A stretch of 32,000 nt of DNA from contig JASBSB010000007.1 of the NCBI GenBank assembly GCA_030149205.1, positions 90,001 to 122,000 of the forward strand. Direction: 5' to 3'. A program made the position numbers and the translations under genes. The notes beneath the pieces were generated by a model. The model did not search any database and was not told the origin of the DNA. It saw only the letters and a program-made list of their open reading frames with translations. Of this stretch, positions 3,642 to 29,826 are shown piece by piece. The DNA comes from Candidatus Heimdallarchaeota archaeon (GTDB lineage: Archaea; Asgardarchaeota; Heimdallarchaeia; Heimdallarchaeales; Kariarchaeaceae). The first letter of the stretch is position 1; each line of letters begins with the position of its first letter.

Positions 3642-3738
3642 CGACAAATAATATTTTTTATCAATTATGACTATTGTAATATTTTAGTAACACATTGGTA
3701 TTATGTAACAAGATAAATAGAGAAATAAAAATTCATCT

Positions 3739-4995: not shown

Positions 4996-5045
4996 GGTTA
5001 TTTATTGAAATTAGACAATTTAAAGTGATGAGGTTTGGTAAAAAT

Positions 5046-6494
5046 TCACGAATATTTTGTTGTGATTATAGGTTTTATATCATTTATTATTTCAATATCT
5101 TCCTCAATTGTTGAAATTGCCTCATTAATTTTCCTGTAATTATCTTCAAGGCGTTCTACTGATGGTTTTTTGATTGTAGTAATTGATGAACCTGTACCAT
5201 CTTGTTTTAATTTTTCAAGGAATTTTACCATTAGATCTTTAACAACTTTCACTAATTCATATGTGTTGTTGCTTTCAAATTCACAATCAGAAATTTTTTC
5301 CATAACAAGAATATATTCATCATCTATTTTTCCAATGTTACTATGGTGTTTTTTAGTCTTGTCAATATTTCGATTTATCGATGTGATGATCTTAAATCCC
5401 ATTTTCTCACCTAATTGAGAAAAAAATTTGTGGGATTCTATCAATTCATATTCTAAGCTTGAATTACCGACAACAATAACACATATTTTGTTTCGTTTTA
5501 ACACACGGTTCATTTCAATAATTGTACGTCCCATGTCTCCTAAATATTCTGAAAGTAACCGGAATCTATTGTTTATAAAGTGTGAATGTCCTCCTATTTC
5601 ATTATCTTTAAACAATTTAATATCTAAATCAAGAACTGCCATATTGTATTGATGAATACGATAATAATCGAGAGCATTTACATAAGGTGGAGAAGTAACA
5701 ATTAAATCTACAGATTTATTCTCAATATAATTTAATTTTCGAGAATCACCCTTGATTACCTCGATTTTAGACTTGTCATTGCCAACCTTATTTTTTAAAT
5801 GGATCAATTCTTTTGCAAAAAGTCTAATATTCTTTAAAAATAATTTGTAAAATCTATCAGCAGACCATTTAACAATTTCTTTTTTTCTACCATTTTGATC
5901 AATTAACGAAAAAATAGCAGATGATAATGAAACATCTAATAAACGACAAATAATTGGATTAGAAAATAATTTAGAAGATTTTCTAATTTGTACTATTCTT
6001 TTTAAAAGGTCATCATGAAAATATTCTTTTTCTTTTCTTTTTGGTAATTTATCTTTGAGTTGATTAATTTCATTCATAGAGACTTCTTGTGTTTCAATAT
6101 TATATTTAATATTTTCAAAATTAAACGAATCTAATAAATCAGTTTTTAGATTAGCAATTAGGTGAGCTAATGGATTGAAATCAATACCAATTCCATTTCT
6201 TTTATTCAAAAGCGCTTCTACTAAGGTAGTACCTCCTCCCATAAACGGATCTAATACAGTGTCTCCTTTTTTTGTAAACAGTTTAATGAATGTTTTAGGA
6301 ATTTGAGGTATAAACCTTGCTGGATATGAATGAATTTTGTGAGATAAATATTGTGTTTTGGCATCTGTAAAGTCCCACAGAATTTCATTTTTAACAATTT
6401 CAAATGCTTCTATATTAGATATACATTGTTTGTTCAGATGATTTTTTTCAGTTTTCGATGGCTCATTAAACCATTGATCTAAACTCGTATTCAT
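5046..6494 (-). CDS. Amino-DNA methyltransferase, probably N4-cytosine, alpha motif order, with C-terminal extension
   Basis: HKIHSYPARFIPQIP, DPFMGGGTT (motif I) preceding DLIVTSPPY (motif IV; SPPY is typical of m4C MTases). Confidence 0.9.
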   Translation of the reverse strand: MNTSLDQWFNEPSKTEKNHLNKQCISNIEAFEIVKNEILWDFTDAKTQYLSHKIHSYPARFIPQIPKTFIKLFTKKGDTVLDPFMGGGTTLVEALLNKRNGIGIDFNPLAHLIANLKTDLLDSFNFENIKYNIETQEVSMNEINQLKDKLPKRKEKEYFHDDLLKRIVQIRKSSKLFSNPIICRLLDVSLSSAIFSLIDQNGRKKEIVKWSADRFYKLFLKNIRLFAKELIHLKNKVGNDKSKIEVIKGDSRKLNYIENKSVDLIVTSPPYVNALDYYRIHQYNMAVLDLDIKLFKDNEIGGHSHFINNRFRLLSEYLGDMGRTIIEMNRVLKRNKICVIVVGNSSLEYELIESHKFFSQLGEKMGFKIITSINRNIDKTKKHHSNIGKIDDEYILVMEKISDCEFESNNTYELVKVVKDLMVKFLEKLKQDGTGSSITTIKKPSVERLEDNYRKINEAISTIEEDIEIINDIKPIITTKYS

Positions 6495-6682
6495 AGCTCT
6501 TATTTGTCATCAAAGAGTTAGAATTAATAAGTACTTATTCGTTATGCTAGATTGATTGCATTTTTTAATCATTTACTTTACTCTCCTTTATTATGTATTC
6601 ACTTCCATTATTTGTACACACTCCTAATTATTCTGTACATTACAACTCATGAGATTCAAAGTTTTTTACCTATTAATTTTTC

Positions 6683-9475
6683 CTAACTGCATCCGGATGT
6701 ATTACCACATTCTGGGCAGGTGTAGCATGATCCTGTTCTAAAGGCAATTGCACCACAGTAGATACAGATCGTGTTATCCTCAAGGCTTGCGTTCTCAGGA
6801 ATTGGGTTGATGCTGGGTGAGACATCAGACGTGTCATGCTCAACGGTGTGCATGCTTATAGGTCTCTCCTCCTCAGGGAGAAATTCCATGGCAAGCCACC
6901 TGAATATGTAGTCCACAATACTTGAGGTTGTTGGTATATCCTTGTTAGCTGTGTAGCCTGAGGGTTCAAACTTTGTGTGAATAAACTTGTTTACTAACAC
7001 AGACAGAGGCACACCATATTGTAATGACATAGAGATCAATACAGCCAGTGAGTCCATCACACCACCGAGGGTAGACCCCTGTTTGCTCATCTTGATGAAC
7101 ACCTCACCTACAGTTCCATCCTCATAAAGGCCTGCGATTATATACCCCTCATGTCCGTCAATGTCAAACTTGTGCACCTTGGATTGTCTTGTCTCAGGAA
7201 GCCTTCTTCTGACAGGTTCTCTGATCGTTACAACCTTCTTCTCAGTCTTTAAGGCAGAGGAGGTATCAGATGTCATTGTTCCGGATTTATCACCCGACTT
7301 CGTACTGGATTTATCACTAGATTTGTCTTCTGACTTTTCAGTGGATTTACCAGTGTTCAGGGGTTGCAGTCTCTTTGAGTTGTCTCTGTAGATGGCAATA
7401 GCCTTCAATCCCATTTTCCACGCCTGTATGTAGGTCTCTGAGATCTCCTCAACTGTGCTGTGCTCAGGCATGTTCACAGTCTTAGAAATTGCACCAGAGA
7501 GGAATGGTTGTGCGGCAGCCATCATCTTGACATGTCCCATATGATGAATTGTTCTTGTGCCATGAGGGCTCTTAAATGCGCAGTCAAATACAGGAAGGTC
7601 TTTCTCCTTGAATCCGGGGGCACCTTCAACAGTGCCATTTTCCAAGACGTAATCCATGATCTGGGCTATCTCCTCCTTGGTATATTTCAGACGCTTTAAT
7701 GCAAGAGGTACAGTTTGGTTTATAATGGTCATGTACCCACCACCGACGAGTTTCTTGTATTTTACGAGTGCTATATCAGGTTCTATACCGGTTGTATCAG
7801 CATCCATCATGAAAGAGATGGTTCCGGTGGGAGCAAGAACAGTCACCTGTGCGTTTCTGTAGCCATAGTTCTCACCAACAGTGAGGGTGGTATCCCACAC
7901 TGTGGTTGCATACTCATAGACCTGAGAGTCCACCCCCTTGTTTTTTATCTGTTTAGAGGCATCTCTGTGCATTTTGATGACTTCTAACATAGGTTCTCTG
8001 TTTGCTTTGAATCCCTCAAATGGCTGTTTTACAGCTGCAATCAGACCACTCTGTAGGTATCCTTGACCGGTGAGAATGGATGTTAGCCCAGCAGTATAGT
8101 TCCTACCCTCATCACTGTCATATGGAAGTCCGAGTGACATGAGTAGAGCACCTAGATTGGTGTATCCAAGACCAAGGGTTCTGTAGATGTGACTGTTCTT
8201 CTCTATCTGAGATGTGGGATAGCTGGAGTTTCCGACCAGTATCTCCTGTGCTGTGATGAGGATGTTGATTGTATGAATGTATTCTTCGAGCTTAAAGTTG
8301 CCATCTTGATCTCTGTATTTCAGGAGATTAATTGAGGCTAGGTTACATGCTGTGTCATCTAGAAAGACATACTCACTGCATGGGTTACTGGCATTGATTG
8401 GACCGCTGACCTTACAGGTGTGCCACTTGTTAAGTGTGTCCTTGAACTGCAAACCTGGATCCCCACAGACGTAAGTAGCCTGACTTATCATGTCCAACAG
8501 CTCTCTCGCCTTGTAGGTGTCTGCTACCTTTCCTGAGGTGACATAATGTGTCTGCCATTCTTTGTTTCGTGTGGCTGCTTCCATAAATGCATCAGACACC
8601 CTTACAGAGTGGTTTGCGTTTTGAAAGAAGACACTGTTATATGCCTCTCCTGTGAATGAGCCATCATATCCTGCATCAATAAGTGCCCATGCTTTCTGTT
8701 CTTCGTGAGCCTTACTGTCTATGAAGTCAACAATATCGGGGTGATCTGCATCCAGAATCACCATCTTTGCTGCTCTTCTGGTCTTACCACCAGATTTTAT
8801 GGTTCCTGCGAAGGCATCATATCCCCTCATGAATGACACCGGTCCAGATGCAAATCCACCCGTGCTAAGCTCCTCTTTCTTTGATCGTAGCTTGGATAGG
8901 TTTACGCCAGATCCAGAGCCATATTTGAAGAGCATTCCCTCGGTCTTTACCAGTTCAAGGATAGATTCCATGCTGTCTTCGATGGAGTTGATGAAGCATG
9001 CGGAGCTTTGTGGTTTGGGGGTTGTTCCGAGATTGAACCAAACTGGTGAGTTAAATGCTGCATACTGGTTGAGGAGGATATGTGTCAGTTCCAGTCCAAA
9101 TATCTCTGCACTTTCCTTATCAGTGAAGTAACTGTCCTTTATTCCCCAGTCTGTGATTGTGTTGACAACTCTGTCTATGAGATGTTTTAGGCTGCTCTCT
9201 CTTTCTGGAGAGTTGTATTTTCCGTGAAAGTATTTGCTTGCCACGATTTGGCTGGCGTTTAATGACCAGTCTTTTGGGAATTCAACATTTTCCTGTTTAA
9301 ACACTGTCTCTCCCTTTTCATTTGCGATGATTGCATCACGTTTTTCCCATTCCACTAATTCGTAGGGGTGGGCACCTGGGGTTGTAAATATTCTGTGAAA
9401 GATCAGGCCGTTTTCGTCAGCCGATGAAGATTTGTATCGTAGTCCCATTTCAGTCATTGTATTATTCTTCCTCAT
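6683..9475 (-). CDS. nrdJ: Class II (adenosylcobalamin-dependent) ribonucleotide reductase with TSCPD domain and C-terminal Zn ribbon
   Basis: NSPVWFN, SACF, GGKTRRAAKM, NPCSE radical Cys, CNLASINL, APTGTIS, SKTVN; C-terminal CIYCG...CPECGNTSGCS. No intein. True start may be the ATG at 9457. Confidence 0.97.
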   Translation of the reverse strand: MRKNNTMTEMGLRYKSSSADENGLIFHRIFTTPGAHPYELVEWEKRDAIIANEKGETVFKQENVEFPKDWSLNASQIVASKYFHGKYNSPERESSLKHLIDRVVNTITDWGIKDSYFTDKESAEIFGLELTHILLNQYAAFNSPVWFNLGTTPKPQSSACFINSIEDSMESILELVKTEGMLFKYGSGSGVNLSKLRSKKEELSTGGFASGPVSFMRGYDAFAGTIKSGGKTRRAAKMVILDADHPDIVDFIDSKAHEEQKAWALIDAGYDGSFTGEAYNSVFFQNANHSVRVSDAFMEAATRNKEWQTHYVTSGKVADTYKARELLDMISQATYVCGDPGLQFKDTLNKWHTCKVSGPINASNPCSEYVFLDDTACNLASINLLKYRDQDGNFKLEEYIHTINILITAQEILVGNSSYPTSQIEKNSHIYRTLGLGYTNLGALLMSLGLPYDSDEGRNYTAGLTSILTGQGYLQSGLIAAVKQPFEGFKANREPMLEVIKMHRDASKQIKNKGVDSQVYEYATTVWDTTLTVGENYGYRNAQVTVLAPTGTISFMMDADTTGIEPDIALVKYKKLVGGGYMTIINQTVPLALKRLKYTKEEIAQIMDYVLENGTVEGAPGFKEKDLPVFDCAFKSPHGTRTIHHMGHVKMMAAAQPFLSGAISKTVNMPEHSTVEEISETYIQAWKMGLKAIAIYRDNSKRLQPLNTGKSTEKSEDKSSDKSSTKSGDKSGTMTSDTSSALKTEKKVVTIREPVRRRLPETRQSKVHKFDIDGHEGYIIAGLYEDGTVGEVFIKMSKQGSTLGGVMDSLAVLISMSLQYGVPLSVLVNKFIHTKFEPSGYTANKDIPTTSSIVDYIFRWLAMEFLPEEERPISMHTVEHDTSDVSPSINPIPENASLEDNTICIYCGAIAFRTGSCYTCPECGNTSGCS
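7277..7348 (-). repeat. In-frame 12-nt x6 repeat encoding the KSxx linker of NrdJ
   Basis: KSTE-KSED-KSSD-KSST-KSGD-KSGT between the catalytic and TSCPD domains. Confidence 0.7.
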
Positions 9476-14257: not shown

Positions 14258-15097
14258 TTAAGCCAACCATCCCGAAATAGAGGATGCCTGTTTTATCCAA
14301 TTTTTAAGTTGATCTAGATTCAGATTTTCATCTTCAAAGATATGGACACATCTTGCCTCTTTGTTGTTTATAGGTATAGGAGGTTCTGGCTTTAACTCAG
14401 AACCACGTAGGAAAGTAATCTTAACATATTTACTTAGCAGGTTAATTTGTGCAAACCATCCGTTATCAGGTACACCATAAAATGGAGCATGCCATTTTAT
14501 TGCTCTTCTGACATCAGGAACCTCTTTTTCAACCAACTGATCAAAAGTACCAACAACTGCTCTCTGCCAACTTGGAAGGCAATCGATGAAAGCTTTAACA
14601 GCAGCTTCACCATCTGATTCATAGTTTTTTCGAGATTTTTGATATTGTCTTATCAATTTTTTCCATTCTTTTTCAGTGGGTTTGCCCTTCGTTATCTTGA
14701 TAGTTCCAAAGTCTCTATCCTCAATCTTTTGCGATTTTGGGTCCACCTCCTTTCCTTCGACTGCTGTAAACACTAGAACATAGCTGTTGTTCTTTGGGTC
14801 ATCTTTTAGGTCAAATTCAAGTCGTAGGGCTTCACCCCCATAATGAAATGAGTATCCAACCCATCCATCAGTTTTATCAGCCCTAGGATCCTTTTTTAAC
14901 CAAAATATTGACATCAATGCAGGGATAAGATCTGCGCCCCATTCTCTTAAACCGAGTCGAAGGTTTCCTTTTTTATCAACTCTGTAATTTGGTGCACGTA
15001 TTGCCTGATTTGATAGCACCAGCTCATTAATGTAGCCTGGAGAAACTTCAATATGATTCATAGATTGGGGTAGAATCTTTATATTAAAAAAATTCAT
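14258..15097 (-). CDS. Unknown N-terminal domain fused to DUF1801 (YdhG-like)
   Basis: C-terminal KWHAPFYG..GWF...YVKITFLRGSELKP...LKNWIKQAS resembles DUF1801; the N-terminal ~150 aa is unrecognised. Start may be the second Met. Confidence 0.7.
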   Translation of the reverse strand: MNFFNIKILPQSMNHIEVSPGYINELVLSNQAIRAPNYRVDKKGNLRLGLREWGADLIPALMSIFWLKKDPRADKTDGWVGYSFHYGGEALRLEFDLKDDPKNNSYVLVFTAVEGKEVDPKSQKIEDRDFGTIKITKGKPTEKEWKKLIRQYQKSRKNYESDGEAAVKAFIDCLPSWQRAVVGTFDQLVEKEVPDVRRAIKWHAPFYGVPDNGWFAQINLLSKYVKITFLRGSELKPEPPIPINNKEARCVHIFEDENLNLDQLKNWIKQASSISGWLA

Positions 15098-15203
15098 ATT
15101 ACAGAACTTTCTAAATCTGTAGAACGACGTCGAGCTTTAAAAAAATTCGACAAGTTTCATTTCTTGTGAGGCGAGAGTTAGCTTTGAAGAGTTTGTGTAT
15201 TCA

Positions 15204-15767
15204 TTACATTCTGATATCAAGCAGATCCATTTTTGTCAATATCCCTATTACTTTTTCTCTTTCTTGAATAAGAACCGCATTATACTTTCTTAGCAGAGGA
15301 TTGATATCTCTCAGAGATGCATTAGGAGGGACTATTGGTAAAATTTCTCGCATACACTCCTCTACTTCAGTATCTTTAAAATCTGTGGTTGTTTGAATTC
15401 TATCAAGGAGGTCAATTGAAAGGTCATCTGTTACTGTTCCATAGACTCTTCCATTTTCTATGACAGGGATCTGAGATATCCCATATTTCTTCATTAACTT
15501 AAGTGCAGACCCAAACTTAGAATGCATTCTTACCGATATAACACTAGGTTCCATTAGCATCTTAACTTCGTGTTCATCTGATTTTACCTGTTCAAGTAGA
15601 TAGTTAAAGATGTTTACTGCAACTGTGTATGAGGGTATTTGTAGCCCACCCTCATATTTTGCGATTGCTGATTGAGTTATCCCCACAGCTTTTGAAAGCT
15701 CAGACTGAGATAATCCCAACTTTTCACGTAAGAGTTTGATATCTGAAATATCTGGGAAAATTGACAC
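15204..15767 (-). CDS. XRE-type HTH + tandem CBS-domain transcriptional regulator
   Basis: LREKLGLSQSELSKAVGITQSAIAKYEG HTH; CBS pair (MKKYGISQIPVI...GTVT; VLIQE..VIGILTKMDLL). GTG start. Confidence 0.92.
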   Translation of the reverse strand: MSIFPDISDIKLLREKLGLSQSELSKAVGITQSAIAKYEGGLQIPSYTVAVNIFNYLLEQVKSDEHEVKMLMEPSVISVRMHSKFGSALKLMKKYGISQIPVIENGRVYGTVTDDLSIDLLDRIQTTTDFKDTEVEECMREILPIVPPNASLRDINPLLRKYNAVLIQEREKVIGILTKMDLLDIRM

Positions 15768-15826
15768 AATAACTAACTGAAAGCTGGAATATAAGTATTT
15801 TCAAGGCAAAATTCGAAGAAGTTAAA

Positions 15827-15844
15827 ATATTCCTATTGGAATAT
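15827..15844. promoter_or_regulatory. Putative operator palindrome ATATTCC-N4-GGAATAT
   Basis: Perfect 7-bp arms in the 121-nt divergent intergenic region; additional half-site GGAATAT at 15786-15792; TATAAA at 15853-15858. Confidence 0.6.
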
Positions 15845-15888
15845 ACAATTACTATAAACATATCTACCTATATTAGACTGGGGTTCTC

Positions 15889-16929
15889 TTGTCAAATATG
15901 GTGAAAGTTCGCGGTGCAATTAGTGGGAATCATCCCTTAAGTGAACAACTAATTCAAGCAATTTTAGACTTTAAATATGGAAGAAATTCCAAGGATAGGG
16001 TAAAAGAGCTATTCCAAAAAGAATTATCTGAACTCATTCAACTTCAGGAGCAATTAGGCTTTGCTAGGGTATCAACTGGTGCTTTAGGGATTGAGGATGT
16101 ATTACGTCCTTTTACAAGGACACTGGGTTCATTAAAATCATATGAGGTCATCGGGGATCTTCCAATTAATAGGTATCATTATACCAATACCTTTTATCGA
16201 CAGCCAAAATTGGTTTCTAAGTTTCCTGATGATGCATCAGTCTATAAATCAGATAAAAATGGACTATCTGATGACAATGTGTTGGCATTGAATCATCTAA
16301 AAAACAGAGAATCAAGAATTGTTGTTCCGGGTCCAGTGACATTTACAAAATTGATAGATAATTCTGAGAATGTCTATCCGTCAGAGCAAGAGCAGATATT
16401 GGAAACTGCCAAATATCTTTCAAAAGAGATCTCAAGTCTTCCAGAGAACTTTAAAGAAATTCAGTTTGATGAACCTGTTTTAGCCTGGAAAAATATTTCG
16501 AGATCGTATCGTGAGTCAATCAGAGATGCCTATACAACATTAAAATCTGCCGCTAAGTCAAGGGACCTGATAATTAACACCTATTTTGAATCCTCGGAAA
16601 ATGTTGTTCCCTTTCTTTTGGATTTGCCAGTTGATGGAGTTGGAGTTGATTTGGTTAACACAAACCTTCTGTCAATCACAGATTACTCTTTTGACAAGAA
16701 GATTTTACAGGCGGGAATCTTGGACTCTCAAAATTATAAACCCAATGTGGACGGTAGCTTGGATACCTCAGATACCAAGCTATACAGCAGGTTAACTCAA
16801 GCATTAGTTGAACTTGAACCAAAAGAGTTGATCCTAAGCAGTAACACAGGTTTGGACTATTTACCCAGAGAGATTGCAGATGCAAAGTTAAGACAATTAG
16901 GAGAGATAATAAAGGAGAGTGAAGAGTGA
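15889..16929 (+). CDS. metE: Split MetE, N-terminal (folate-binding, non-catalytic) half
   Basis: YHYTNTFYRQP, VPGPVTF, IQFDEP, NTYFE, AGILDSQN resemble the N-terminal barrel of MetE; Zn ligands absent. ATG alternative at 15898. Confidence 0.8.
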   Translation: MSNMVKVRGAISGNHPLSEQLIQAILDFKYGRNSKDRVKELFQKELSELIQLQEQLGFARVSTGALGIEDVLRPFTRTLGSLKSYEVIGDLPINRYHYTNTFYRQPKLVSKFPDDASVYKSDKNGLSDDNVLALNHLKNRESRIVVPGPVTFTKLIDNSENVYPSEQEQILETAKYLSKEISSLPENFKEIQFDEPVLAWKNISRSYRESIRDAYTTLKSAAKSRDLIINTYFESSENVVPFLLDLPVDGVGVDLVNTNLLSITDYSFDKKILQAGILDSQNYKPNVDGSLDTSDTKLYSRLTQALVELEPKELILSSNTGLDYLPREIADAKLRQLGEIIKESEE

Positions 16930-16930
16930 G

Positions 16931-18097
16931 ATGTCAAATTTAGATATAGATTTCTTAACACATGAGGTGGGTTCACTTAGAAAGCCAAATGCATTCATTA
17001 AAGCTGGAAGAAACCAGAAGCTTACAGATGCTGATTTCGATGAATTTAAGGGATTTTTAAGCCTTGTTGGGGAAACTGAGGTCTCTGAGGAGCTAAAGAA
17101 CCTATTTACAAGGGTCGGACCTGAAACAGCAAACGACAAAGACCTTCACAATGAGCTTGCAAAGTGGAGGGTTTGGTATAATGTAAAATACAAGGAAAGT
17201 TCAGGAATAGACTTAATTGATGCTGGTGAATGGATAAGAAGAGAGATGTATCAGCACATTGTAGATAATGATGTTGTTAGTGGGATCAAAATGTTACAAC
17301 ATGTGAGATCCTTTGATTACAATTTTTACAAAGTTGGTGTTAACACCTCTCCAATTCAGTATGATAGATCAAAGTCAATTCATGTACAGGAGTTTAAATG
17401 GGCATCAGAAGTGGCTACCAAACCACTCAAGGTCTGTGTGACATCTTTCAACACAGTTGCTGAGTGGTCATTGAAGGGAAAGAACAACTTCGATGACTTA
17501 ATGTTTGATTTCATTGATGAAGTTTTTGTCCCAGAAACAATTAAGTTGTTGGATGCAGGAGTAAATTGGATCCAGATGGATGAACCTGCCTTGACTACCC
17601 ACCCTAAGCACGTTGACACCTTTGTTGATGGGTGGAATTATTGGGTTGATAAAATTTCAGGGCATTTAAAACCCGATACAGTTCTAGGTTTACATAACTG
17701 TTTTTCTGATTATAACCTTCTTTGGCCTATATTACCAGACATGAAGAACTTAGGTGCCATTACATTAGAATTTGCAAACAGAGACACATGGAAACTGGGA
17801 ACTGATGATGAGAGTCGTGTTGCATTTGCGGAACACAAACAGGTGTTAAAAAACCTATACGATACTGGATTTAAAGCAAAAGCTGCATTAGGTGTACTGC
17901 CTGTTCACACAGACCATGAGACCTCGCCAGAGTTGATCAGAGATAGGTTATTGTATATACAATCATTCATAGATGATCCAAAGCTTGTGTTAGCTGCTCC
18001 AGATTGTGGGTTAAGACAAAGGAGCCTTGAGGTCTCCCATAAAGTGCTAAAAAACATGTCTAAAGGTGCAGAGTTGGCAAAGAAAGAACTGGAGTAA
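16931..18097 (+). CDS. metE: Split MetE, catalytic Zn half (cobalamin-independent methionine synthase)
   Basis: THEVGSLRKP, WIQMDEPA, LHNC (H-x-C), TLEFANR, APDCGL Zn ligands; ATG 1 nt after the upstream TGA (the track starts at GTG 16919). Confidence 0.9.
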   Translation: MSNLDIDFLTHEVGSLRKPNAFIKAGRNQKLTDADFDEFKGFLSLVGETEVSEELKNLFTRVGPETANDKDLHNELAKWRVWYNVKYKESSGIDLIDAGEWIRREMYQHIVDNDVVSGIKMLQHVRSFDYNFYKVGVNTSPIQYDRSKSIHVQEFKWASEVATKPLKVCVTSFNTVAEWSLKGKNNFDDLMFDFIDEVFVPETIKLLDAGVNWIQMDEPALTTHPKHVDTFVDGWNYWVDKISGHLKPDTVLGLHNCFSDYNLLWPILPDMKNLGAITLEFANRDTWKLGTDDESRVAFAEHKQVLKNLYDTGFKAKAALGVLPVHTDHETSPELIRDRLLYIQSFIDDPKLVLAAPDCGLRQRSLEVSHKVLKNMSKGAELAKKELE

Positions 18098-18101
18098 GAC
18101 A

Positions 18102-19055
18102 ATGAAAATAGGAGTTGAGATAGAACCACCAAAAGGAGCCTATACAACTCAAAAGGAGGAGAAACACTCATTTGAAGAGGAAGTCAATGCCTATAAGAAT
18201 CATGTCTCTATGATTTCAATCACCAACCGTCCAGTATTTGGATTGTCTTCCATAACTATGGCAAAACGTGTGCAGAGATTATCGATGGATGCCAACAGAG
18301 AAATTAGAATTAACCTACATTTAACAACAAGGTATTCACATTTTGACATATACAGGGAGGTGTTGGATTCTCATCGGATAGGGTTAACAGATCTACTTCC
18401 AATCTTAGGGGATCCTAGAGGTCCTAAAAATGATAAAACATACTTTGTAGATGGATTTGAGATTTTAGGTTTTGTAAACTATCTACGTAATGGGAATGCA
18501 GAATACCTATCAGACAGATTCACTGAAATGATTGAGAGAGGAGAATTCATTGAACCTCTTGATGATACTAAGTTTCGGGTAGGCTCTGTGGTGGATCTGA
18601 ATCCATACAAGGAAATAAAAGGAAAGCAAATAGAGATCAGGGAAAAACAGATCAAATTTGCCCTTAGAAAACAAGAATTAGGGGCGGATTATCTAATTTC
18701 ACAGGGAATCTTTGACACGGAACATTATTTTTCATTTTTAGAAGAATCAGGCTTAAAGATACCAATCATCCCTGGTGTCCTACCAGCCAGGTTACGGCTA
18801 ATAAATGCATTTGGTATTCCAATAAATACTCTGTTAAAGTCTAGATTAAGAGCACAATTTAGCACAGAGGATGAACAAAGGGAGGGAAATAAGATCTCAA
18901 GGGATGTGTTCAACGATCTCAAAGAAAAAGGGTGTGAAGCAGTTCACGTCTATTCTTTGGGGTCTTTAAAAAATTTTGAAGAGATCACTGGTCTTAAAGT
19001 TGGTCTTCCTAAGATCAAACTTTATGACAAATCAAAAGACCTTGGCAAAAGCTGA
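18102..19055 (+). CDS. metF: Methylenetetrahydrofolate reductase (MetF family, divergent)
   Basis: VEIEPPK, HLT, LGDP, ISQGIFD, PIIPGVLP and HVYSL match MTHFR motif positions; operon context. Likely start is the ATG at 18102. Confidence 0.8.
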   Translation: MKIGVEIEPPKGAYTTQKEEKHSFEEEVNAYKNHVSMISITNRPVFGLSSITMAKRVQRLSMDANREIRINLHLTTRYSHFDIYREVLDSHRIGLTDLLPILGDPRGPKNDKTYFVDGFEILGFVNYLRNGNAEYLSDRFTEMIERGEFIEPLDDTKFRVGSVVDLNPYKEIKGKQIEIREKQIKFALRKQELGADYLISQGIFDTEHYFSFLEESGLKIPIIPGVLPARLRLINAFGIPINTLLKSRLRAQFSTEDEQREGNKISRDVFNDLKEKGCEAVHVYSLGSLKNFEEITGLKVGLPKIKLYDKSKDLGKS

Positions 19056-19074
19056 GGAAACCGGAGAGAAATAA

Positions 19075-20208
19075 ATGACAAAAACTAGCTATTTAACGTC
19101 AGAAAGCGTTACTGAGGGTCACCCAGATAAGGTCGCTGATCAGATCAGTGACGCTATTCTTGATGAGATATTAAAAGAGGACAAGGCAGCCAGAGTTGCT
19201 TGTGAAACCTTTGTAACCACAGGACTTGTTGTTATTGGAGGAGAAATCGCAACAGAGAGTTATGTGAATCTACATCAGGTTGTAAGGGATACTGTTAAAG
19301 AAATTGGTTATGTACACCCAGACATCGGATTCTTCTACAAGGATGTGGCTGTGTTAAATGTTATACATGAACAAAGTCCAGATATCGCACAGGGTGTTAT
19401 CAAGAATTCATCAGAAGAACAGGGAGCTGGAGATCAGGGATTAATGTTTGGATATGCTGTCGATCATACAGATGAGTTAATGCCACTTCCAATCAAGCTT
19501 TCACATGATTTAACAAGAAATCTTGCAAGGCTTAGAAAATCCGGAGAGTTGGATTATTTAAGACCTGATGGAAAAGCCCAGATTGCTATAAGATATAAGG
19601 ACAATGTTCCACAGGAAGCCACAAAAGTTGTGATTGCTACCCAACACACCGAATCAGTGGATCAGACAAAGATTAAGCAAGATCTTACTGAACTTCTCAT
19701 CAAACCACAATTGGGGGAATATTTCACTGATAAGACTGATGTGATTGTAAATGGTACTGGTAAATTTGTAATCGGTGGTCCACATGGTGATGCTGGATTA
19801 ACTGGAAGAAAGATTATTGTAGACACCTATGGAGGAGCAGGTTACCATGGGGGTGGTGCCTTTTCAGGCAAGGATCCTTCAAAAGTGGACAGGTCTGGGT
19901 CATATGTGAGCCGTTATATTGCTAAAAATGTGGTGGCTGCTGGTTTAGCTAAAGAATGTTCTGTTCAGATTTCTTACTCAATAGGAGTAGCAGAACCCAT
20001 TTCATTTGACGTCAAAACTTTTGGAACATCTACTGACTTGTCTGATGAAGAAATCAGAGAGAAAGTTTTGAGAAACATTGACCTTCGCCCTGGTCCCATT
20101 ATAGAGAGGTTTGATCTGAGGAGACCAATTTTTAGACAGGTTTCAAACTATGGACATTTCGGGAGGAATGACTTAGATCTTCCTTGGGAAAAGACAGACT
20201 TATTTTAG
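19075..20208 (+). CDS. metK: S-adenosylmethionine synthetase, bacterial/eukaryotic type
   Basis: [54 protein letters not shown]. Confidence 0.98.
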
Positions 20209-20242
20209 TTTTTGCAGATAGCAATCACTAAACGCAATAATT

Positions 20243-20752
20243 TTAATGGTATATATTTGTGAGATATTGTTTCCATGGACCAACTTCTTCTTTGAAGTGG
20301 TTAGCAATAGACCTTGTAATTTGGATTAGATGGTTCAAATCATGCATTGCCCATGTCGATATTAACTCGCTTAAGGTAACCTTACCCAAAGAGGGATGAA
20401 TCCCAGTTTTATTGAGATTTTCTTTGATAGGAAGTGATTTTATAAATCCTAAATTCTTCTCTCTAAGCTCAATAAACTCTTTTAACAGAGCTTGAACTGT
20501 TGTTTTGTCATTAAGCTTGGGAATTCTGACAAAAGGCTCAAAGGATTTGTTAGCATCATCTGACAATATAATATTTATCCTTGGAACCCAGTCAGTATTC
20601 TCACCATGAATCAAATGTCCAAGAACAATTTTTGTATCCCAACTGTTATTATCTCCTCCACTTAACAATGAGTCGGGAAGTTGTGAGATTAATTCTTTGA
20701 TTGTTTTTGGGGTGTTTTGTAAGATACTGAGTGCAGAAGCGTAACTATTCAT
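20243..20752 (-). CDS. DinB/YfiT-family four-helix-bundle protein
   Basis: LGHLIHGENTDWVPR, GIHPSLGKVTLSELISTWAMHDLNHL (three-His metal triad). Confidence 0.85.
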   Translation of the reverse strand: MNSYASALSILQNTPKTIKELISQLPDSLLSGGDNNSWDTKIVLGHLIHGENTDWVPRINIILSDDANKSFEPFVRIPKLNDKTTVQALLKEFIELREKNLGFIKSLPIKENLNKTGIHPSLGKVTLSELISTWAMHDLNHLIQITRSIANHFKEEVGPWKQYLTNIYH

Positions 20753-20957: not shown

Positions 20958-20975
20958 TAATTGCAGATGCAATTA
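20958..20975. promoter_or_regulatory. Putative operator palindrome TAATTGCA-GA-TGCAATTA
   Basis: Perfect 8-bp arms ending 2 nt before the AGGTGA SD (20978-20983) and 12 nt before the ATG at 20988. Confidence 0.55.
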
Positions 20976-20987
20976 ACAGGTGAAAGT

Positions 20988-22139
20988 ATGGAAAAAGTAG
21001 CTATAATTGGAGTTGGAGTTGAAGGCTTTAGACCTGAAATTCGAGACTTATCTTACAAAGAGATGGTTTATCAGGCAGCTGTTAAGGCCTACTCCGATGC
21101 AGATATAAATCCAAGAGAAGAGGTTGACACCTTTATCTCTTGTGAAGAGGACTTTTCTATGGGTACATCTATAACTGACGAGTACGCTCCTGATCAGTTA
21201 GGTGCAGCTCAGAGAACTGTTCATACAATTACTGGTGATGGTATTCAAGGCATTGTAGCAGCTTATATGCAAATTAAAACAGGTATGTTTGATGTAGCTG
21301 TGGTTGAAGCCCAGAGTCGATCTTCTGATATAAAAACCCATAATCAAATTCAGCATTTAGCATTTGATCCATTATATGCAAGGCAGTTTGATGCAATTTA
21401 CCACTCAGCTGGTGCATTGGAAAAGAGGATGTATACCTCTGAGTTCGGTGTATCTGAAGAGGCAATTGCGAACGTTGTTATAAAAAATCATGAAAATGCC
21501 CTTAGGAACCCAAACGCAGCATATGGTATGAGATTAAAAGAATTTGATGTATTGGAAGCTGAGATGGTGGCAAGCCCACTGAGAGATACAGAGATTTCTT
21601 CATCTGTAGATGGCTCTATAGTTGTGGTCTTAGCTAATGAAAAGGTTGTAAAAGAGAAAGATTCAAATCCAGTATGGATTAAGGGAATTAATTATGCAAC
21701 AAACTCACCAAACTTTGATACCAGAGAATGGAAGAAGGCAAAGTACGCAGAATTGAGCGCAAAAAAGGCGTATCAGATGGCTGGGATCAAAAACCCACAT
21801 GATGAAATAGATGTTTTTGAGGTGGATGATACCTATGCATTTAAGGAATTACAACATCTGGAGGGCCTAGGTCTTTTTGAATATGGAAAGGCTGCGGAAG
21901 CTTTAATGAATGGAGAATTTAGCAATAAAGGAAGTACCCCCGTAAATGTTTCTGGAGGAGTTCTTGGTATGGGAAATGCACATGATGCAAATGGTTTACA
22001 AAGAATATCAGAAATTGTAGAACAACTCAGAGGACATGCCGGTAGAAGGCAGGTCAAAGGAGCTAAGACTGGTCTCGCATTCTCTTGGAGAGGAGTTCCG
22101 ACTACAGCAGGAGCTGTGGCAATTTTGTCAAAGGAGTGA
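20988..22139 (+). CDS. Non-canonical thiolase-fold protein, subunit 1 (no nucleophilic Cys)
   Basis: Thiolase/SCP2-type fold motifs (DGSIVVVLA, PVNVSGG, RQVKGA); TITGDG in place of xxACASG; GNAH in place of GHP. AGGTGA SD supports the start at 20988. Confidence 0.85.
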   Translation: MEKVAIIGVGVEGFRPEIRDLSYKEMVYQAAVKAYSDADINPREEVDTFISCEEDFSMGTSITDEYAPDQLGAAQRTVHTITGDGIQGIVAAYMQIKTGMFDVAVVEAQSRSSDIKTHNQIQHLAFDPLYARQFDAIYHSAGALEKRMYTSEFGVSEEAIANVVIKNHENALRNPNAAYGMRLKEFDVLEAEMVASPLRDTEISSSVDGSIVVVLANEKVVKEKDSNPVWIKGINYATNSPNFDTREWKKAKYAELSAKKAYQMAGIKNPHDEIDVFEVDDTYAFKELQHLEGLGLFEYGKAAEALMNGEFSNKGSTPVNVSGGVLGMGNAHDANGLQRISEIVEQLRGHAGRRQVKGAKTGLAFSWRGVPTTAGAVAILSKE

Positions 22140-22144
22140 ATAAA

Positions 22145-23344
22145 ATGAAAGGAAAGAAAGTAGGAATGGTAAGTGTAGGACTTACAAAATTTATGAGACG
22201 GGCAAAGGAAACTCCTAAAGAATTAGCATATTATTCTGCGAAAATGGCTTTGGATAATGCCGGAATCACAAGAAAAGATGTAGATGGAGTAATCATAGGG
22301 TCTGCGCCTGACGCCTTTGATGGTGTTCATCAAAAGCATGAATATTTGACCGATGGGTCTGGTGGGTTCAATCTGCCAACCATGAGAGGTTATGTTGGAG
22401 GTGGAACCGGGGTTTTCTCACCAATTCAGGGGTGGTACTCAGTTGCTTCAGGTATGAACGATGTTGTTCTTATAACAACTGAGGAGAAAATGTCGACTAT
22501 TCAACCCTCTGCTCAGGCAGGTTTTCTAACAATTTTTGATAATATGATCGAGAGAAACTTAGGTCCGAACCTGGTTTGGATTTTTGCTCTTGAGATGAAA
22601 AGGTATATGGAGAAGCACGGAATTCCAAAAGAACATATAGCATCAGTTTCTGTCAAAAACAAAGGAAATGCTTTGGATCATCCCAGTGCTATGCTTGGGC
22701 AAAAGCTAACAATTGAACAGGTTATGAACTCAGAAGTTCTGGCTGATCCAGTTCATTTGTTAGACATCTCCCCAGTGGCAGATGGAGCAGTCTCATTTGT
22801 TATGATGTCAGAGGATAAAATTAAAGAATTTGGAATTCCACTTGATCAGGTAGCCTGGGTTGACGGTGTTGGTTGGAATGTTGATACAACCATCTGGACC
22901 AATCGTGACCTATACTATCCAAAGTATGTGGAAAAGGCTGCAAAGCAGGCATATAACATGGCAGGTCAAAAAGACCATTCTCCAGAGACTTTAAGAAAAT
23001 GGTTATCCTTTGCTGAACCTTATGATCCGTTCAATTATAAGGAGCTCCATCACTTGGAGGGGTTACAATTGTTCGGAAAGGGAGAAGCACCCCGAGCGGC
23101 TTTTGAGGGTGTCACTGCAAGAGATAGCGATTTTCCTGTAACACCTTCTGGAGGTTTACTTGGTGTTGGAAACCCCATTGCTGCTGCTGCTGGAATGAAG
23201 GCTGCAGAAGTGTATTTACAGCTTACCGGACAGGCAGGAAAGAGACAGATTCCAAAAGATGTAACTCGTGGATTAGCACAGGCTTGGGGAGATCTTATGC
23301 AAGTTGGTACTGTTCTTGTTATGAAAGGAGGTCAGGTGCAATAA
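22145..23344 (+). CDS. Non-canonical thiolase-fold protein, subunit 2 (contains no Cys)
   Basis: SPVADGA, TPSGGLLGVGNP, AGKRQI; YVGGGTG at the catalytic-Cys position; start ATG at 22145. Confidence 0.87.
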   Translation: MKGKKVGMVSVGLTKFMRRAKETPKELAYYSAKMALDNAGITRKDVDGVIIGSAPDAFDGVHQKHEYLTDGSGGFNLPTMRGYVGGGTGVFSPIQGWYSVASGMNDVVLITTEEKMSTIQPSAQAGFLTIFDNMIERNLGPNLVWIFALEMKRYMEKHGIPKEHIASVSVKNKGNALDHPSAMLGQKLTIEQVMNSEVLADPVHLLDISPVADGAVSFVMMSEDKIKEFGIPLDQVAWVDGVGWNVDTTIWTNRDLYYPKYVEKAAKQAYNMAGQKDHSPETLRKWLSFAEPYDPFNYKELHHLEGLQLFGKGEAPRAAFEGVTARDSDFPVTPSGGLLGVGNPIAAAAGMKAAEVYLQLTGQAGKRQIPKDVTRGLAQAWGDLMQVGTVLVMKGGQVQ

Positions 23345-23844
23345 TGGAACTTAGAGGTACAAAACTCAGCAATGATGAATTTCTGAATAAGGTTCTTAGT
23401 GTGACATACTACCCTGAATTGGATTATGCTTGGGCCACAGGAGTTGCAATCACAAAGTTTCTGAATGGTCTCAAAGAGGGTGTCATCTATGGCACCAAAT
23501 GCAATGAATGTTCTCGAGTTGTTTGTCCACCCCGTATGTTTTGTGAGGAATGTCATACCCCTATGAATGAGTATGTGGAACTTCCCCAAACAGGAATTAT
23601 CAATACCTTCTCTTTAGCATACATCAGAACAGATGCAACCAGAAGAGACAAAGCAGAAATTCCAGCAGTAATTGACATTGATGGAACCACAATCAGTCCA
23701 TCTGGTTTCTTACATCTCATTAATGAAGATACACCTCATGACAAGGTAAAGGTCAATGCAAAGGTGAAAGCCGTCTGGAAATCTCCAGAGGAACGTAAGG
23801 GAGATATCACAGATATCAAGTATTTTGATATTATGGAGGACTAA
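23344..23844 (+). CDS. DUF35 Zn-ribbon/OB-fold protein 1
   Basis: GTKCNECSRVVCPPRMFCEEC, then OB fold ending VKAVWK...GDITDIKYF; the ATG overlaps the upstream TAA. Confidence 0.9.
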   Translation: MELRGTKLSNDEFLNKVLSVTYYPELDYAWATGVAITKFLNGLKEGVIYGTKCNECSRVVCPPRMFCEECHTPMNEYVELPQTGIINTFSLAYIRTDATRRDKAEIPAVIDIDGTTISPSGFLHLINEDTPHDKVKVNAKVKAVWKSPEERKGDITDIKYFDIMED

Positions 23845-26656: not shown

Positions 26657-27670
26657 AATATAATAGCCAAATGATCCTTGGATTAACTCTGGGTCAGATT
26701 TAGTGACCACTCCAAGAACCAATCTAGCGATGTCTTTCACCTGAGCCTCTTTCAGAACAAAATAACTCCAAATTGCGTCAGGTGTGTTGCTCTTTATGTT
26801 GAAAATTACTCTGTTACGTTTGTTATAAGCAACTTCTAACATATGTTCTAGTGTTGGAACTAGTGTCTCATCTGGTGCATCCAAAGCAGGTCTCAATTCC
26901 TTTGCGAAGGCAAGCCTACTTAATGACCATATAATTATGTCTCTTGCAGAATTCATCTGCTTTATTCTGTCTACGTTTTTTGCTATGACACCATATTTTG
27001 AAATAATCCACTTTTCTGGATCGATATTTAGAGACTTTGCTCTAATAATGGTTAACATGTTTTGATAATCTATCATAGTTTTTACTGTGGGGATTATCTT
27101 GACAGAATATTCATAAACTGCATGTTCAAGACTTGTGGTTAATTGGAAGAGTTCTTCCTCAAACTCACCCTTGTATGAAAGTGCAGATTTTATTGCCTTT
27201 CTAAGCTGCCTTTGGGTTATTAAATCAGCTGCTAGGAGAGGATTGGGGGTAAACAACATCCTTTCATAATGTTTCACCCCATATTTGCTCACTGGAACAA
27301 TGTAATTTAGAATATCACTATCCACTTCGTTGGAAATAATAGATCTAAATATCAATTTCAGGTTTTCGCTCTCTACTTTTAATATAACCGCATCAAGAAT
27401 TTCTCCGATTCTTTGTGAGGCACCTGTTCTAAAGCTCAACAACCTATCAGCGAAAGTTTTTCTAAGTTCCCTCTCAAATTTGAGAATATCAACAGAAGGA
27501 CGAGCCTGACTTACAACTTCCGCATAGCTCGTGTTGCTTAAGTAATTTTCCAACTCAAAGATGTCCGAAACACTCGTTAAGCTTTTAATTAACCCAAGCT
27601 TGGGAGATTTTCCCATATCAGATTTTGCCCGAGCTATTAGGTAGGGGAGGGTTGCTGTCATAGAATTCAC
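26654..27670 (-). CDS. atpC: A/V-type ATPase subunit C (V0 d homolog)
   Basis: YLIARAKS, LSNTSY, ESENLKLIFR, YFVLKEAQVKDI; the GTG overlaps the subunit I TGA. Confidence 0.85.
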   Translation of the reverse strand: MNSMTATLPYLIARAKSDMGKSPKLGLIKSLTSVSDIFELENYLSNTSYAEVVSQARPSVDILKFERELRKTFADRLLSFRTGASQRIGEILDAVILKVESENLKLIFRSIISNEVDSDILNYIVPVSKYGVKHYERMLFTPNPLLAADLITQRQLRKAIKSALSYKGEFEEELFQLTTSLEHAVYEYSVKIIPTVKTMIDYQNMLTIIRAKSLNIDPEKWIISKYGVIAKNVDRIKQMNSARDIIIWSLSRLAFAKELRPALDAPDETLVPTLEHMLEVAYNKRNRVIFNIKSNTPDAIWSYFVLKEAQVKDIARLVLGVVTKSDPELIQGSFGYYI

Positions 27671-29826
27671 TCCTCAACTGTGTAAAGTCGCTTTACAGAG
27701 TAAGGTGAAAAAGGAACACCGTTTCCACTGTAAAATTTCCCGTAGAACTCAACCCATGTTAACCTAAGAGCTTGTAAACTGCTAAACACTGTTTCTACAG
27801 GGACAACGATGATTGTACCAATAATCAAACCTACAATCCACCATGTTAGACTACCACTTCCAACCACATTTTGTCCCCATTCCCCAACATAGTGATTTAC
27901 TGTGTGACTTTGAAGAAACAGATCTAAAAATATGTATGGAAGAATCCTTAAAACAAAGTGAACTGTATTCATTGCAAGCAACCGGCTAAAACTAAGTGTG
28001 TTACTCAGTAAGCCTATAAAATGCTCAACCCCTTGCATTGCTCCATCAAAACCGTGAGCTTTCGCTTCAAAATAGATTAAGAAGAACAGTGCGAGTCCTA
28101 CAACGGCCATGAAGAAATATTGAACAAAAGAACTGGTAAAGAAGATTAAACCTGCCCCTAAGAACAGAGTGATCTGTGCAATCGGTGCATAATACTCATA
28201 TTTTGAATGACCATACTTCCTTTTCTGATAAACTTTGATGACCAAACCTAGCAGAATTGTAATCGCAGCCATAACTATTGATAAAATGAGAATATTAACA
28301 TAGTTTCGAGAGACCTCTTCTGCTCCATGTGCGGGGACTATAGAATACAACCATCTCCAGCCACCACCAAATATCTGAGGTAAAACAGGTACACTCCATA
28401 ATATAGTTTCATCTCCACCAAACGAACCGAAGACAAGCCCCATAAAGGCGGAAACCAGACCCATCCAAACCAACAGCTCAGCACCACCGTAAAGATAAGC
28501 TGAAAATCCTTCTGTTGGTATAACGTCTTTCTTCCTCTTCTTTCTTACAAAAATGTAACCGATTAGAGCAAGAACTAAACCATCAACGACATCAGCGAAC
28601 ATTATCCCAAAAAATACTGGGAATAGAATGGCAACCAATGGGAAGGGGTCAATTTCCTCATGACTTGGGTGGCCAAAGGAGCTAACAAGTCCTCTGACTG
28701 GAGGTAAATATTTTTTATCTCTTGTTAAGCTTGGGACATATTTCTTATCAAAAGCTGCCTCTTTATATTCCACTATTGCGGAACCTTTGCTTACTTCATC
28801 AACCTTGGTGGTAAACGAATTTACATTTTCTGGAGGGATCCAACCCCAAACAACGATATTTGTCTTTGTTCTCTTCATCTTGTTTTCTAAGGCAATTCGT
28901 TGAGTTTCGATATCACAGGCTTCTAGTGCAGATAAGAACAAGTTCAGGTTTGAATCCCCGAAGCTTTTAATTTCGTCTAAAATAACTTCAAGCTTGTTCT
29001 CTAATATAGAAATTTCAGATTCAAAACTTTTTGCATCCAATGTTTGAGTTAATTCAATATTTTCAGGAATTTTGAAAGGTTGATAATTAAACTCCTTTAA
29101 CTTTAATTCTACTACCTCTTCATCAGATGCTAAACAAATTAATATGAAGAAAACTTCTCCTGTTTTTTTGTCTTCATCAGAATACCTTAACACAAAAGCT
29201 CCATCAGTTAGGTCAATCATAATTGAATTCAAAGTTTTTATCTGTTCACCAAATACTGAGCCTATGAAGACCTTTGTATAATTTGATTGAACCTTTGAGG
29301 TTAGGGTTGAAACTGTCTCAGAATCACTTTCCAAACCAACTGCTTCAATCTTTTGTAGTAGGCTTAGAACTGTCCTTAAATCGCTTAACTCCTTTTGAAT
29401 TTCAGTCTCTTGTTTAAACAGTGATTCAACCTCGGTGCCTTTCTCATCCTTAACTTTATTTGCGAATTTTTGAACCTCAAGCTCTATGCTAGGAACGGTT
29501 AATTTTTGACGTGGTGGGTCATCTTTTAAATACGTTCGTAGCTTTGTAACAATTACTTGAAAGTCACTTTTTAATGATTCAAATGTATTTCTTCTGTTTT
29601 CAAGTTCAAGTTGATCCACACCGGGTCTTGGATCGATTTCGATTGGTTCAATGTAACCGACCTTTTCAATCTCTCTAACGATATTTCGCTTGTATTCCAT
29701 TGGTGCAATAATTTTCACGAGTCCAGGATAATCAGGAAATCCCCAATCTTTTTTTGCTCTTTGGGTAACTACCCCCTTATCCATGGATTCAGCCTTATTT
29801 ACACTAGTTGTAGCTAGGTTGGACAT
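27667..29826 (-). CDS. atpI: A/V-type ATPase subunit I (a)
   Basis: EIDPFP, FFGIMFADVVDG, NTLSFSRLLAM (essential Arg), LRLTWVEFYGKFYSGNGVPFSP. Confidence 0.95.
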   Translation of the reverse strand: MSNLATTSVNKAESMDKGVVTQRAKKDWGFPDYPGLVKIIAPMEYKRNIVREIEKVGYIEPIEIDPRPGVDQLELENRRNTFESLKSDFQVIVTKLRTYLKDDPPRQKLTVPSIELEVQKFANKVKDEKGTEVESLFKQETEIQKELSDLRTVLSLLQKIEAVGLESDSETVSTLTSKVQSNYTKVFIGSVFGEQIKTLNSIMIDLTDGAFVLRYSDEDKKTGEVFFILICLASDEEVVELKLKEFNYQPFKIPENIELTQTLDAKSFESEISILENKLEVILDEIKSFGDSNLNLFLSALEACDIETQRIALENKMKRTKTNIVVWGWIPPENVNSFTTKVDEVSKGSAIVEYKEAAFDKKYVPSLTRDKKYLPPVRGLVSSFGHPSHEEIDPFPLVAILFPVFFGIMFADVVDGLVLALIGYIFVRKKRKKDVIPTEGFSAYLYGGAELLVWMGLVSAFMGLVFGSFGGDETILWSVPVLPQIFGGGWRWLYSIVPAHGAEEVSRNYVNILILSIVMAAITILLGLVIKVYQKRKYGHSKYEYYAPIAQITLFLGAGLIFFTSSFVQYFFMAVVGLALFFLIYFEAKAHGFDGAMQGVEHFIGLLSNTLSFSRLLAMNTVHFVLRILPYIFLDLFLQSHTVNHYVGEWGQNVVGSGSLTWWIVGLIIGTIIVVPVETVFSSLQALRLTWVEFYGKFYSGNGVPFSPYSVKRLYTVEE

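Follow-up and report, generated by a model that had tools for sequence, protein, structure and literature searches.

A candidate helix-turn-helix/CBS switch for methionine and S-adenosylmethionine synthesis in Heimdallarchaeia and other archaea

In bacteria, the synthesis of methionine and S-adenosylmethionine (SAM) is controlled by MetJ, MetR, SahR or riboswitches, none of which is present in the DNA described below. MetJ of Escherichia coli is corepressed by SAM and shuts off the methionine biosynthesis genes and metK, and metJ itself is divergent from met genes. In SahR and SamR, an ArsR-type winged helix is joined to a methyltransferase-like sensor, with S-adenosylhomocysteine (SAH) as the effector. 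For archaea, we did not find a described transcriptional regulator of methionine/SAM synthesis in the full-text literature, in which the coverage of subscription journals is incomplete. Here, we describe a regulator gene and its putative operator in a 32,000-nucleotide stretch of the genome of a Candidatus Heimdallarchaeota archaeon (contig JASBSB010000007.1, positions 90,001 to 122,000), below called the window. The regulator has a helix-turn-helix (HTH) domain followed by a pair of CBS domains, and together with its operator it is a strong candidate for an undescribed archaeal methionine/SAM switch. The initial annotation of this DNA knew of no characterised archaeal regulator of the methionine cycle with such an architecture, and our literature search likewise returned none.

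MetJ, SahR and the SAM riboswitches are the closest systems in logic, but none of them is homologous to the regulator or present here. MetJ has the logic that we propose for the window, that of a protein repressor that senses SAM and is encoded divergently from met genes. However, MetJ is a ribbon-helix-helix protein with tandem 8-bp metboxes and no CBS domain, whereas the window has an HTH_3 domain, a CBS pair and a single 20-bp palindrome, which places the regulator outside the MetJ family. In bacteria, the task of SAM feedback can also fall to SAM riboswitches (the S-box and others), which act on metK, metE, metF and homocysteine synthesis, but as RNA and not as protein, and no Rfam family, SAM riboswitches included, gave a match at an E value of ≤1 on either strand of positions 15000-20500. 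SahR and SamR of the Proteobacteria are one-component regulators of metK, metF and ahcY that respond to an adenosyl metabolite (PMC4239095).

In architecture, the closest characterised protein is CcpN (YqzB) of Bacillus subtilis, which has an N-terminal HTH and two CBS domains and represses gapB and pckA (PMC7028823). In contrast to the window regulator, which is archaeal and linked to methionine and SAM, CcpN is bacterial and acts in gluconeogenesis with other targets and another operator. None of the 24 NCBIfam matches of the regulator is a CcpN model, and the likeness is claimed for the architecture alone. Two other regulators are also CBS proteins but have a different architecture and no link to methionine/SAM genes, namely, HhpR of Pyrococcus yayanosii, a pressure-responsive activator with four CBS domains (PMC11705074), and BCARR of Lactobacillus helveticus, a responder to branched-chain amino acids with its CBS domains at the N-terminus (PMC3795697). 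The HhpR model NF053603 gave 22.5 bits with the window regulator against a cut-off of 520.

The regulator belongs to a widespread, uncharacterised archaeal family of XRE-type HTH proteins with a CBS pair, although the kind itself, a one-component regulator made of an HTH and a sensor, is known. We consider it likely that the protein is such a one-component factor, that it binds positions 15826-15845 as a dimer and controls the met operon, and that its CBS pair senses SAM or a close adenosyl derivative and so provides feedback. The genes and the site are the following:

15204-15767, minus strand: regulator gene, 187 aa, GTG start, with HTH_3 at about residues 9-62 and the CBS pair at about residues 66-186
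15826-15845, no strand: candidate operator of 20 bp, AATATTCCTATTGGAATATA, with a perfect 7-4-7 palindrome (15827-15844) as its core
15889-16929, plus strand: metE-N, like the N-terminal domain of cobalamin-independent methionine synthase (Pfam Meth_synt_1, E value 5e-22)
16919-18097, plus strand: metE-C, catalytic domain of cobalamin-independent methionine synthase (Pfam Meth_synt_2, E value 5.5e-19)
18066-19055, plus strand: metF, methylenetetrahydrofolate reductase-like (Pfam MTHFR, E value 3e-14, 53.5 bits against a cut-off of 24)
19075-20208, plus strand: metK, bacterial/eukaryotic-type SAM synthetase (TIGR01034, E value 1.5e-163, above the cut-off)

The putative operator stands out in the host genome. 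The exact palindrome ATATTCC-TATT-GGAATAT occurs only once in 3.3 Mb with a GC content of 35%, and in a scan with a matrix of 20 columns, derived from the window site and sites in other genomes, positions 15826-15845 scored 27.0 bits and were the sole site above 20 bits. The runner-up, with 18.3 bits, lies inside an open reading frame (ORF) of 1013 aa. Weaker sites in the genome (14-18 bits) were rejected as regulon members, being mostly within ORFs or beside DJ-1/PfpI, PIN and ABC transporter genes.

The same operator is found across distant archaea. The pattern AATATTCy-N4-rGAATATT is present in 17 intergenic regions of DPANN, Asgard, Nitrososphaeria and Methanosarcinales metagenome-assembled genomes (MAGs), and the 18-mer core of the window site, ATATTCCTATTGGAATAT, recurs unchanged in a Diapherotrites MAG (L061). 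An operator lies within about 100 nt of the regulator start at the 16 training loci, at 6 of the 23 test loci and at loci L015, L033, L041 and L131; the sites of these last four are independent of the matrix and score 28.8, 25.5, 23.9 and 24.7 bits, respectively. Operator and regulator also co-occur in that the metK genes of relatives without the regulator (G001, G003 and G007) have no operator, with a best score of ≤5.8 bits, and as a control, 250 kb of bacterial loci with CBS-only proteins gave a single site of ≥15 bits. No operator was found near the family members beside pyrG or seen next to that of Methanolobus sp. ZRKC3 (L067), and near-matches in the genome of a Micrarchaeota archaeon with a pyrG-adjacent member were set aside, since all are inside ORFs and look like chance. 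A looser pattern for finding regulons (WWTATTC-N6-GAATAWW with 1 mismatch) proved too noisy, with hundreds of matches per AT-rich genome, 1.5-5 times the reversed control, and only the best-scoring intergenic sites from these scans were pursued.

Some lineages have a modified operator. In genus g14 (L034-L040, for example, L038:8822-8842), AATATTCC is kept while the right arm is moved by one base, so that N7 separates ATTC and GAAT and the cores are 11 bp apart, centre to centre, compared with 10 bp in the window; the right arm of this AATATTC-N7-GAATATT variant is partly degenerate, but the variant is consistent over seven loci with a divergent met operon. In genus g2 (L010:8648-8667 and L012:5714-5733), the left arm ATTCCAAT is kept, and TACTAAT replaces the right arm GGAATAT, which makes this a conserved but asymmetric variant. 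At the DPANN loci, the operator abuts TTTATAAA of the regulator's own promoter and is separated from the downstream metK TATA box by a gap of the size of a TFB-recognition element (BRE). At five loci from different phyla (L055, L063, L065, L073 and L078), a conserved CTCTTGAC(A) block stands between the operator and the metK TATA box, which could serve as a BRE or as another protein-binding element.

The regulator is also linked to methionine/SAM genes by its position. Within the class Heimdallarchaeia, homologues were found in 17 of 83 genomes at an E value of ≤1e-25, and 10 of the 18 loci are divergent from metE/metF/metK, with regulators that share 30-45% identity with that of the window. 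The arrangement at L010 is identical, with the regulator divergent from metE-N/metE-C/metF/metK, and at L013 the regulator is divergent from metF-metK. In genus g14, where the regulators are 35-40% identical to the window protein, seven of the eight loci are divergent from metE-N/metE-C(/metF)/metK, and the eighth is cut by the end of the contig. Outside the class, where one genome per species was scanned with an alignment of 5 sequences as the query, 39 archaeal full-length loci were obtained. A bacterial-type metK lies within 2.5 kb at 18 of these and is directly divergent at 11 of the 18, while about 10 of the 39 have no methionine/SAM link. The linked loci come from DPANN, Nitrososphaeria, Bathyarchaeia and Methanosarcinales MAGs. 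The divergent partner is metE-N/C in an Aenigmatarchaeota archaeon (L054), cysteine/methionine pyridoxal phosphate (PLP) enzymes (Cys_Met_Meta_PP) in Nitrososphaeria (L048 and L050) and a Bathyarchaeota archaeon (L056), and a SAM hydroxide adenosyltransferase in a Micrarchaeota archaeon (L057). Across archaea, 24 of the 38 loci with a readable context adjoin metK, metE, Cys/Met PLP enzymes, SAM hydrolase or an operon with homoserine dehydrogenase and ThiS. Of four further metagenomic members, one is divergent from metK and two are divergent from CTP synthase, and the neighbours of the fourth are tRNA-binding and radical-SAM genes. The initial annotation had proposed a one-component regulator of the met operon and had looked to the linkage of orthologues, the conservation of the intergenic site and a genome-wide motif scan for a decision; each of these points to such a role, which therefore seems probable from comparative sequence data.

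Three kinds of loci extend the set of apparent targets. In G006, the regulator (L009) is at the end of an operon (2450-6174) for a PALP enzyme, a ThiS-like carrier, homoserine dehydrogenase and a ThiF-rhodanese protein, which looks like protein-thiocarboxylate-dependent homocysteine synthesis, and a site of 21.0 bits that is independent of the matrix (L009:6155) is located exactly at the promoter of this operon. The PALP enzyme is read there as two ORFs of 231 and 187 aa, and a frameshift or an assembly error is possible. In G070, the regulator is away from methionine genes, and a 21.8-bit site precedes a remote Cys/Met PLP gene (L142) by 22 nt, which would make this gene a target in trans. 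In two Heimdallarchaeial families (L015 in G040 and L033 in G072), the regulator has cdhC(-cdhD), which encode acetyl-CoA synthase, as its divergent partner, with perfect operators (L015:7662-7681 and L033:8303-8322) 38-45 nt upstream of cdhC; these operators may couple the methyl branch and acetyl-CoA synthase to the SAM status.

The protein itself agrees with the reading of the initial annotation, which had described an XRE-type HTH-CBS gene divergent from a tightly packed metE-N/metE-C/metF/metK operon. In Pfam, the N-terminus is an XRE-type HTH_3 domain (PF01381, E value 3e-12, 46.7 bits against a cut-off of 23) and the C-terminal part is two CBS stretches (PF00571, E value 1.5e-17, 64.1 bits). 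The AlphaFold model (mean pLDDT of 93.9) has a four-helix HTH (residues 9-16, 21-28, 32-40 and 47-62) followed by a Bateman module, a fold that is supported by a Foldseek probability of 1.00 to many CBS pairs with a root mean square deviation of about 2 Å. Foldseek did not find a full-length HTH-CBS structure in the PDB, only generic CBS pairs, in agreement with a profile search of PDB sequences. A predicted complex of the homodimer with two SAM molecules scored 0.15 against a mark of 0.42 and was used neither for nor against dimerisation or SAM binding.

An exhaustive profile search was used to gather the family, as a word-indexed protein search recovered the query alone. The full-length search gave 481 clusters at an E value of ≤1e-30, aligned over residues 3-185, and public annotation calls family members merely "CBS domain-containing protein". 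Among 118 members, residues S31, Q32, S33, A36, K37 and E39 of the recognition helix are at least 90% conserved, a constancy that fits the near-invariant operator. The same recognition helix is present in L129 and L133 (Micrarchaeota) and L127, which are divergent from pyrG or beside tRNA-binding/radical-SAM genes and have no AATATTC-N6-GAATATT nearby. The HTH part of the profile also matched 33 separate stretches of a 4162-aa protein (P0003) in the representative library and 10-12 stretches of other proteins of about 1000 aa; matches of this type are giant proteins of repeated HTH-like units.

The operon divergent from the regulator is compact, with overlaps of 11 and 32 nt followed by a 19-nt gap before metK. 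The NCBIfam methionine synthase models score below their cut-offs for metE-N, as does PRK01207 for metE-C (E value 2e-48), while metK carries all three bacterial-type S-AdoMet_synt domains in Pfam. The host genome, which has an archaeal 16S rRNA, is 93.5% complete, and the archaeal-type SAM synthetase (PF01941) was not found in it, so that the metK of the operon is the sole SAM synthetase found. In DPANN, Nitrososphaeria and Methanosarcinales MAGs, too, the regulator occurs with a metK of this bacterial type, and the pair may travel together.

The palindrome at 15827-15844, the TATAAA at 15853 and the half-site at 15786-15792 over a TATA-like element, all noted in the initial annotation, can be read in the sequence. 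The intergenic gap of 121 nt given there holds if metE-N starts at TTG 15889 but not if it starts at ATG 15898, which gives 130 nt; the ATG is probably the right start, judging from the comparison with L010. The putative promoter elements in this gap are the following:

15853-15858, plus strand: TATAAA, putative TATA box for the met operon, downstream of the 20-bp site (by 7 nt) and of the palindrome core (by 8 nt)
15869-15875, plus strand: TATATTA, alternative TATA-like element centred 26 nt upstream of ATG 15898, about 24 nt past the operator
15786-15792, no strand: GGAATAT, extra half-site that overlaps the TATA-like TTATATT
15788-15794, minus strand: TTATATT, TATA-like element 24 nt upstream of the regulator GTG

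TATAAA is common (0.14 per 100 nt), so that it is no more than a putative TATA box. The geometry of operator, short BRE-sized gap and TATA box is the same at metK promoters of other loci. The use of TATATTA instead would give a leaderless metE-N mRNA, and leaderless transcripts are equally possible on both sides, since TATATTA is 26 nt before ATG 15898 and TTATATT is 24 nt before the GTG. The full operator, 59 nt from the regulator GTG, is nearer to the met promoter than to the regulator's own promoter. The extra half-site is weaker evidence and only mildly unexpected, as GGAATAT has 806 copies in the genome and about 0.03 are expected by chance per 121 nt.

We propose that a dimer of the regulator would bind the palindrome AATATTCC-TATT-GGAATATA (15826-15845) in the shared divergent promoter region. 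CBS pairs commonly dimerise, and the ATTC and GAAT cores of the operator are 10 bp apart, centre to centre, which is one helical turn and is as expected if a dimer places its two HTH domains in successive major grooves. Binding would control the metE-N/metE-C/metF/metK operon and probably also the regulator's own gene. The CBS module would be the sensor, most likely of SAM, the end product of the operon, or of a close adenosyl derivative, seated in a single canonical ribose-binding site that includes D181 of GILTKMD. Ligand binding would alter the geometry of the two HTH domains and through this the affinity for DNA, resulting in end-product feedback. We favour SAM as a corepressor, where the bound protein would occlude TFB and TBP next to the TATA box. 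The initial annotation had likewise suggested a sensor of SAM, SAH or methylthioadenosine (MTA), and it had the regulator repress its own gene; such autorepression might act through the half-site at 15786-15792.

Several features of the CBS pair bear on the ligand. SAM-binding Bateman modules have one canonical site, in which a G-x-x-T-x-x-D motif binds the ribose and the methionyl carboxylate, and in human cystathionine beta-synthase, G-V-V-T-A-I-D and the F-D-Q of CBS-1 bind SAM (PMC4276868). The second CBS motif of the regulator is canonical (G175-I-L-T-K-M-D181), with G175 and D181 conserved across the 118 family members, while the first has L116 at the position of the Asp, so that one canonical adenosyl site per monomer is expected. 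This is also the case for the CBS pairs of human cystathionine beta-synthase and MJ0100; however, those modules regulate an enzyme, whereas the CBS pair of the window is fused to a DNA-binding domain. Matched by position and without superposition, G-I-L-T-K-M-D corresponds to G-V-V-T-A-I-D and a near-invariant I-S-Q to F-D-Q, with F443 and D444 of the human enzyme replaced by I and S, and this second correspondence may be taken as a hint but not as a discriminator. Among NCBIfam models, the CBS part best matches the SAM-binding regulatory domain of cystathionine beta-synthase (TIGR01137), with an E value of 1e-13 and a score of 50.7 bits that is far below the cut-off of 510 bits.

There are, however, several points that weigh against the proposed mechanism. 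The operator is upstream of the candidate TATA boxes and not on them, a position that suits activation as well as repression, and the SAM hydrolase as divergent partner at L057 fits poorly with simple SAM-dependent repression. In the host, no site was found for ahcY (best score, 6.2 bits) or for three Cys/Met PLP genes, so the regulon there looks local. About one-third of the sampled family members adjoin unrelated genes, such as pyrG in Micrarchaeota, and have no operator, which means that the family is not uniformly a methionine regulator. Foldseek ranks AcuB proteins, which bind AMP/ADP, highest among the structures that match the CBS pair, above the SAM-binding domain of human cystathionine beta-synthase (4uuu); MJ1225 is also among the matches. 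The fold does not tell the ligand. We rejected S98-Q99 as a SAM-specific signature, as it is kept in most of the family members that are not beside methionine genes. No experimental or transcript study of the window regulator or of any family member was found, and a search of sequencing runs listed no RNA data.

The sign of regulation could be the opposite of the one that we favour, which we regard as rather unlikely. The ligand-free protein would then activate the met promoter from just upstream of the BRE and TATA box and be released by SAM, with autorepression where the site overlaps the regulator's own TATA box, and such an activator would give the same physiology as SAM-dependent repression. 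In the window, the distance from the end of the operator is 7 nt to TATAAA and about 24 nt to TATATTA, at other loci the operator is one BRE-sized gap upstream of the metK TATA box and abuts TTTATAAA on the regulator side, and sites upstream of the BRE are typical of archaeal activators such as Ptr2 and TFB-RF1. Against this, an HTH dimer on 20 bp probably also covers the BRE-sized gap, which favours the occlusion of TFB and, hence, repression.

Another effector is a still less probable explanation. The same regulator and operator could respond to SAH, MTA, homocysteine or methionine, as the SAH-responsive SahR does in Proteobacteria. The CBS pairs of MJ0100, an archaeal protein of the homocysteine pathway, bind MTA as well as SAM (Lucas et al. 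2010, as cited in PMC4276868), and SahR is an example of SAH as a signal for the control of metK and metF (PMC4239095). However, the SAH hydrolase gene of the host has no operator, although ahcY is the core target of SahR. The apparent targets, metK, metE, metF and homocysteine synthesis, instead match the SAM-controlled regulons of MetJ and the S-box.

The CBS pair could also read the adenylate pool (AMP/ADP/ATP) in the manner of CcpN, AcuB and AMPK-gamma, and thereby tie the ATP-costly synthesis of SAM to the energy state of the cell, which appears marginally less probable again. CcpN responds to ATP/ADP. The closest CBS-pair structures, AcuB with AMP/ADP/ATP and the AMPK-gamma-like MJ1225, fit with such a sensor, as do the family members that adjoin pyrG or radical-SAM genes and not methionine genes, and CcpN gives the precedent of the one characterised HTH-CBS repressor (PMC7028823). 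However, the targets that are conserved across phyla are specifically methionine/SAM genes and not general ATP-consuming pathways, and energy sensing leaves unexplained why metK is the commonest partner.

Finally, it is very improbable that the adjacency and the palindrome are coincidental, with a generic XRE-family protein beside an AT-rich inverted repeat that has no operator role: short AT-rich palindromes are common at 35% GC, and 16 of 100 shuffles of the window matched the pattern with ≤2 mismatches, but the 3.3-Mb genome has just one copy of the exact site, several phyla show the same sequence next to regulators of only 30-45% identity although the intergenic DNA around it cannot be aligned, and it is absent where the regulator is absent, so this explanation is already contradicted by the comparative data.

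The rest of the window holds genes of other functions. A DinB-like gene is convergent beyond metK, and positions 20961-23844 contain a pair of thiolase-like genes with a zf-ChsH2/OB (DUF35-type) gene after them, an arrangement that resembles the archaeal cluster of acetoacetyl-CoA thiolase, HMG-CoA synthase and DUF35, but the second gene scores as a thiolase and not as an HMG-CoA synthase in Pfam. The regions 5046-9475 and 27667-29826 are ordinary housekeeping context and hold genes for an N6/N4 DNA methylase, a B12-dependent (class II) ribonucleotide reductase that ends in a TSCPD domain, and subunit I of a V-type ATPase.

In a wider and more tentative reading, which we hold to be possible but somewhat short of probable, the window regulator represents, for the Asgard archaea, an ancient SAM-sensing protein switch that is pan-archaeal, with a recognition helix and a 20-bp operator that would have stayed nearly unchanged across DPANN, Asgard, Nitrososphaeria, Bathyarchaeia and Methanosarcinales, and which in some Heimdallarchaeia would also couple the expression of cdhC-cdhD to the methyl-group status. 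The locus is a complete and small test system of one 187-aa protein, one 20-bp site and one operon with the sole SAM synthetase, and because the operator is near-invariant across phyla, what is learned from any one expressed orthologue would apply to hundreds of lineages that have not been cultured, the Asgard relatives of eukaryotes among them. If the proposed mechanism is true, the regulator would join CcpN as the second HTH-CBS transcription factor to be characterised, and it might serve in biosensors as a compact SAM sensor made of protein. It would then also be a protein counterpart of MetJ and the SAM riboswitches of bacteria, and methionine/SAM regulons would be predictable from sequence.

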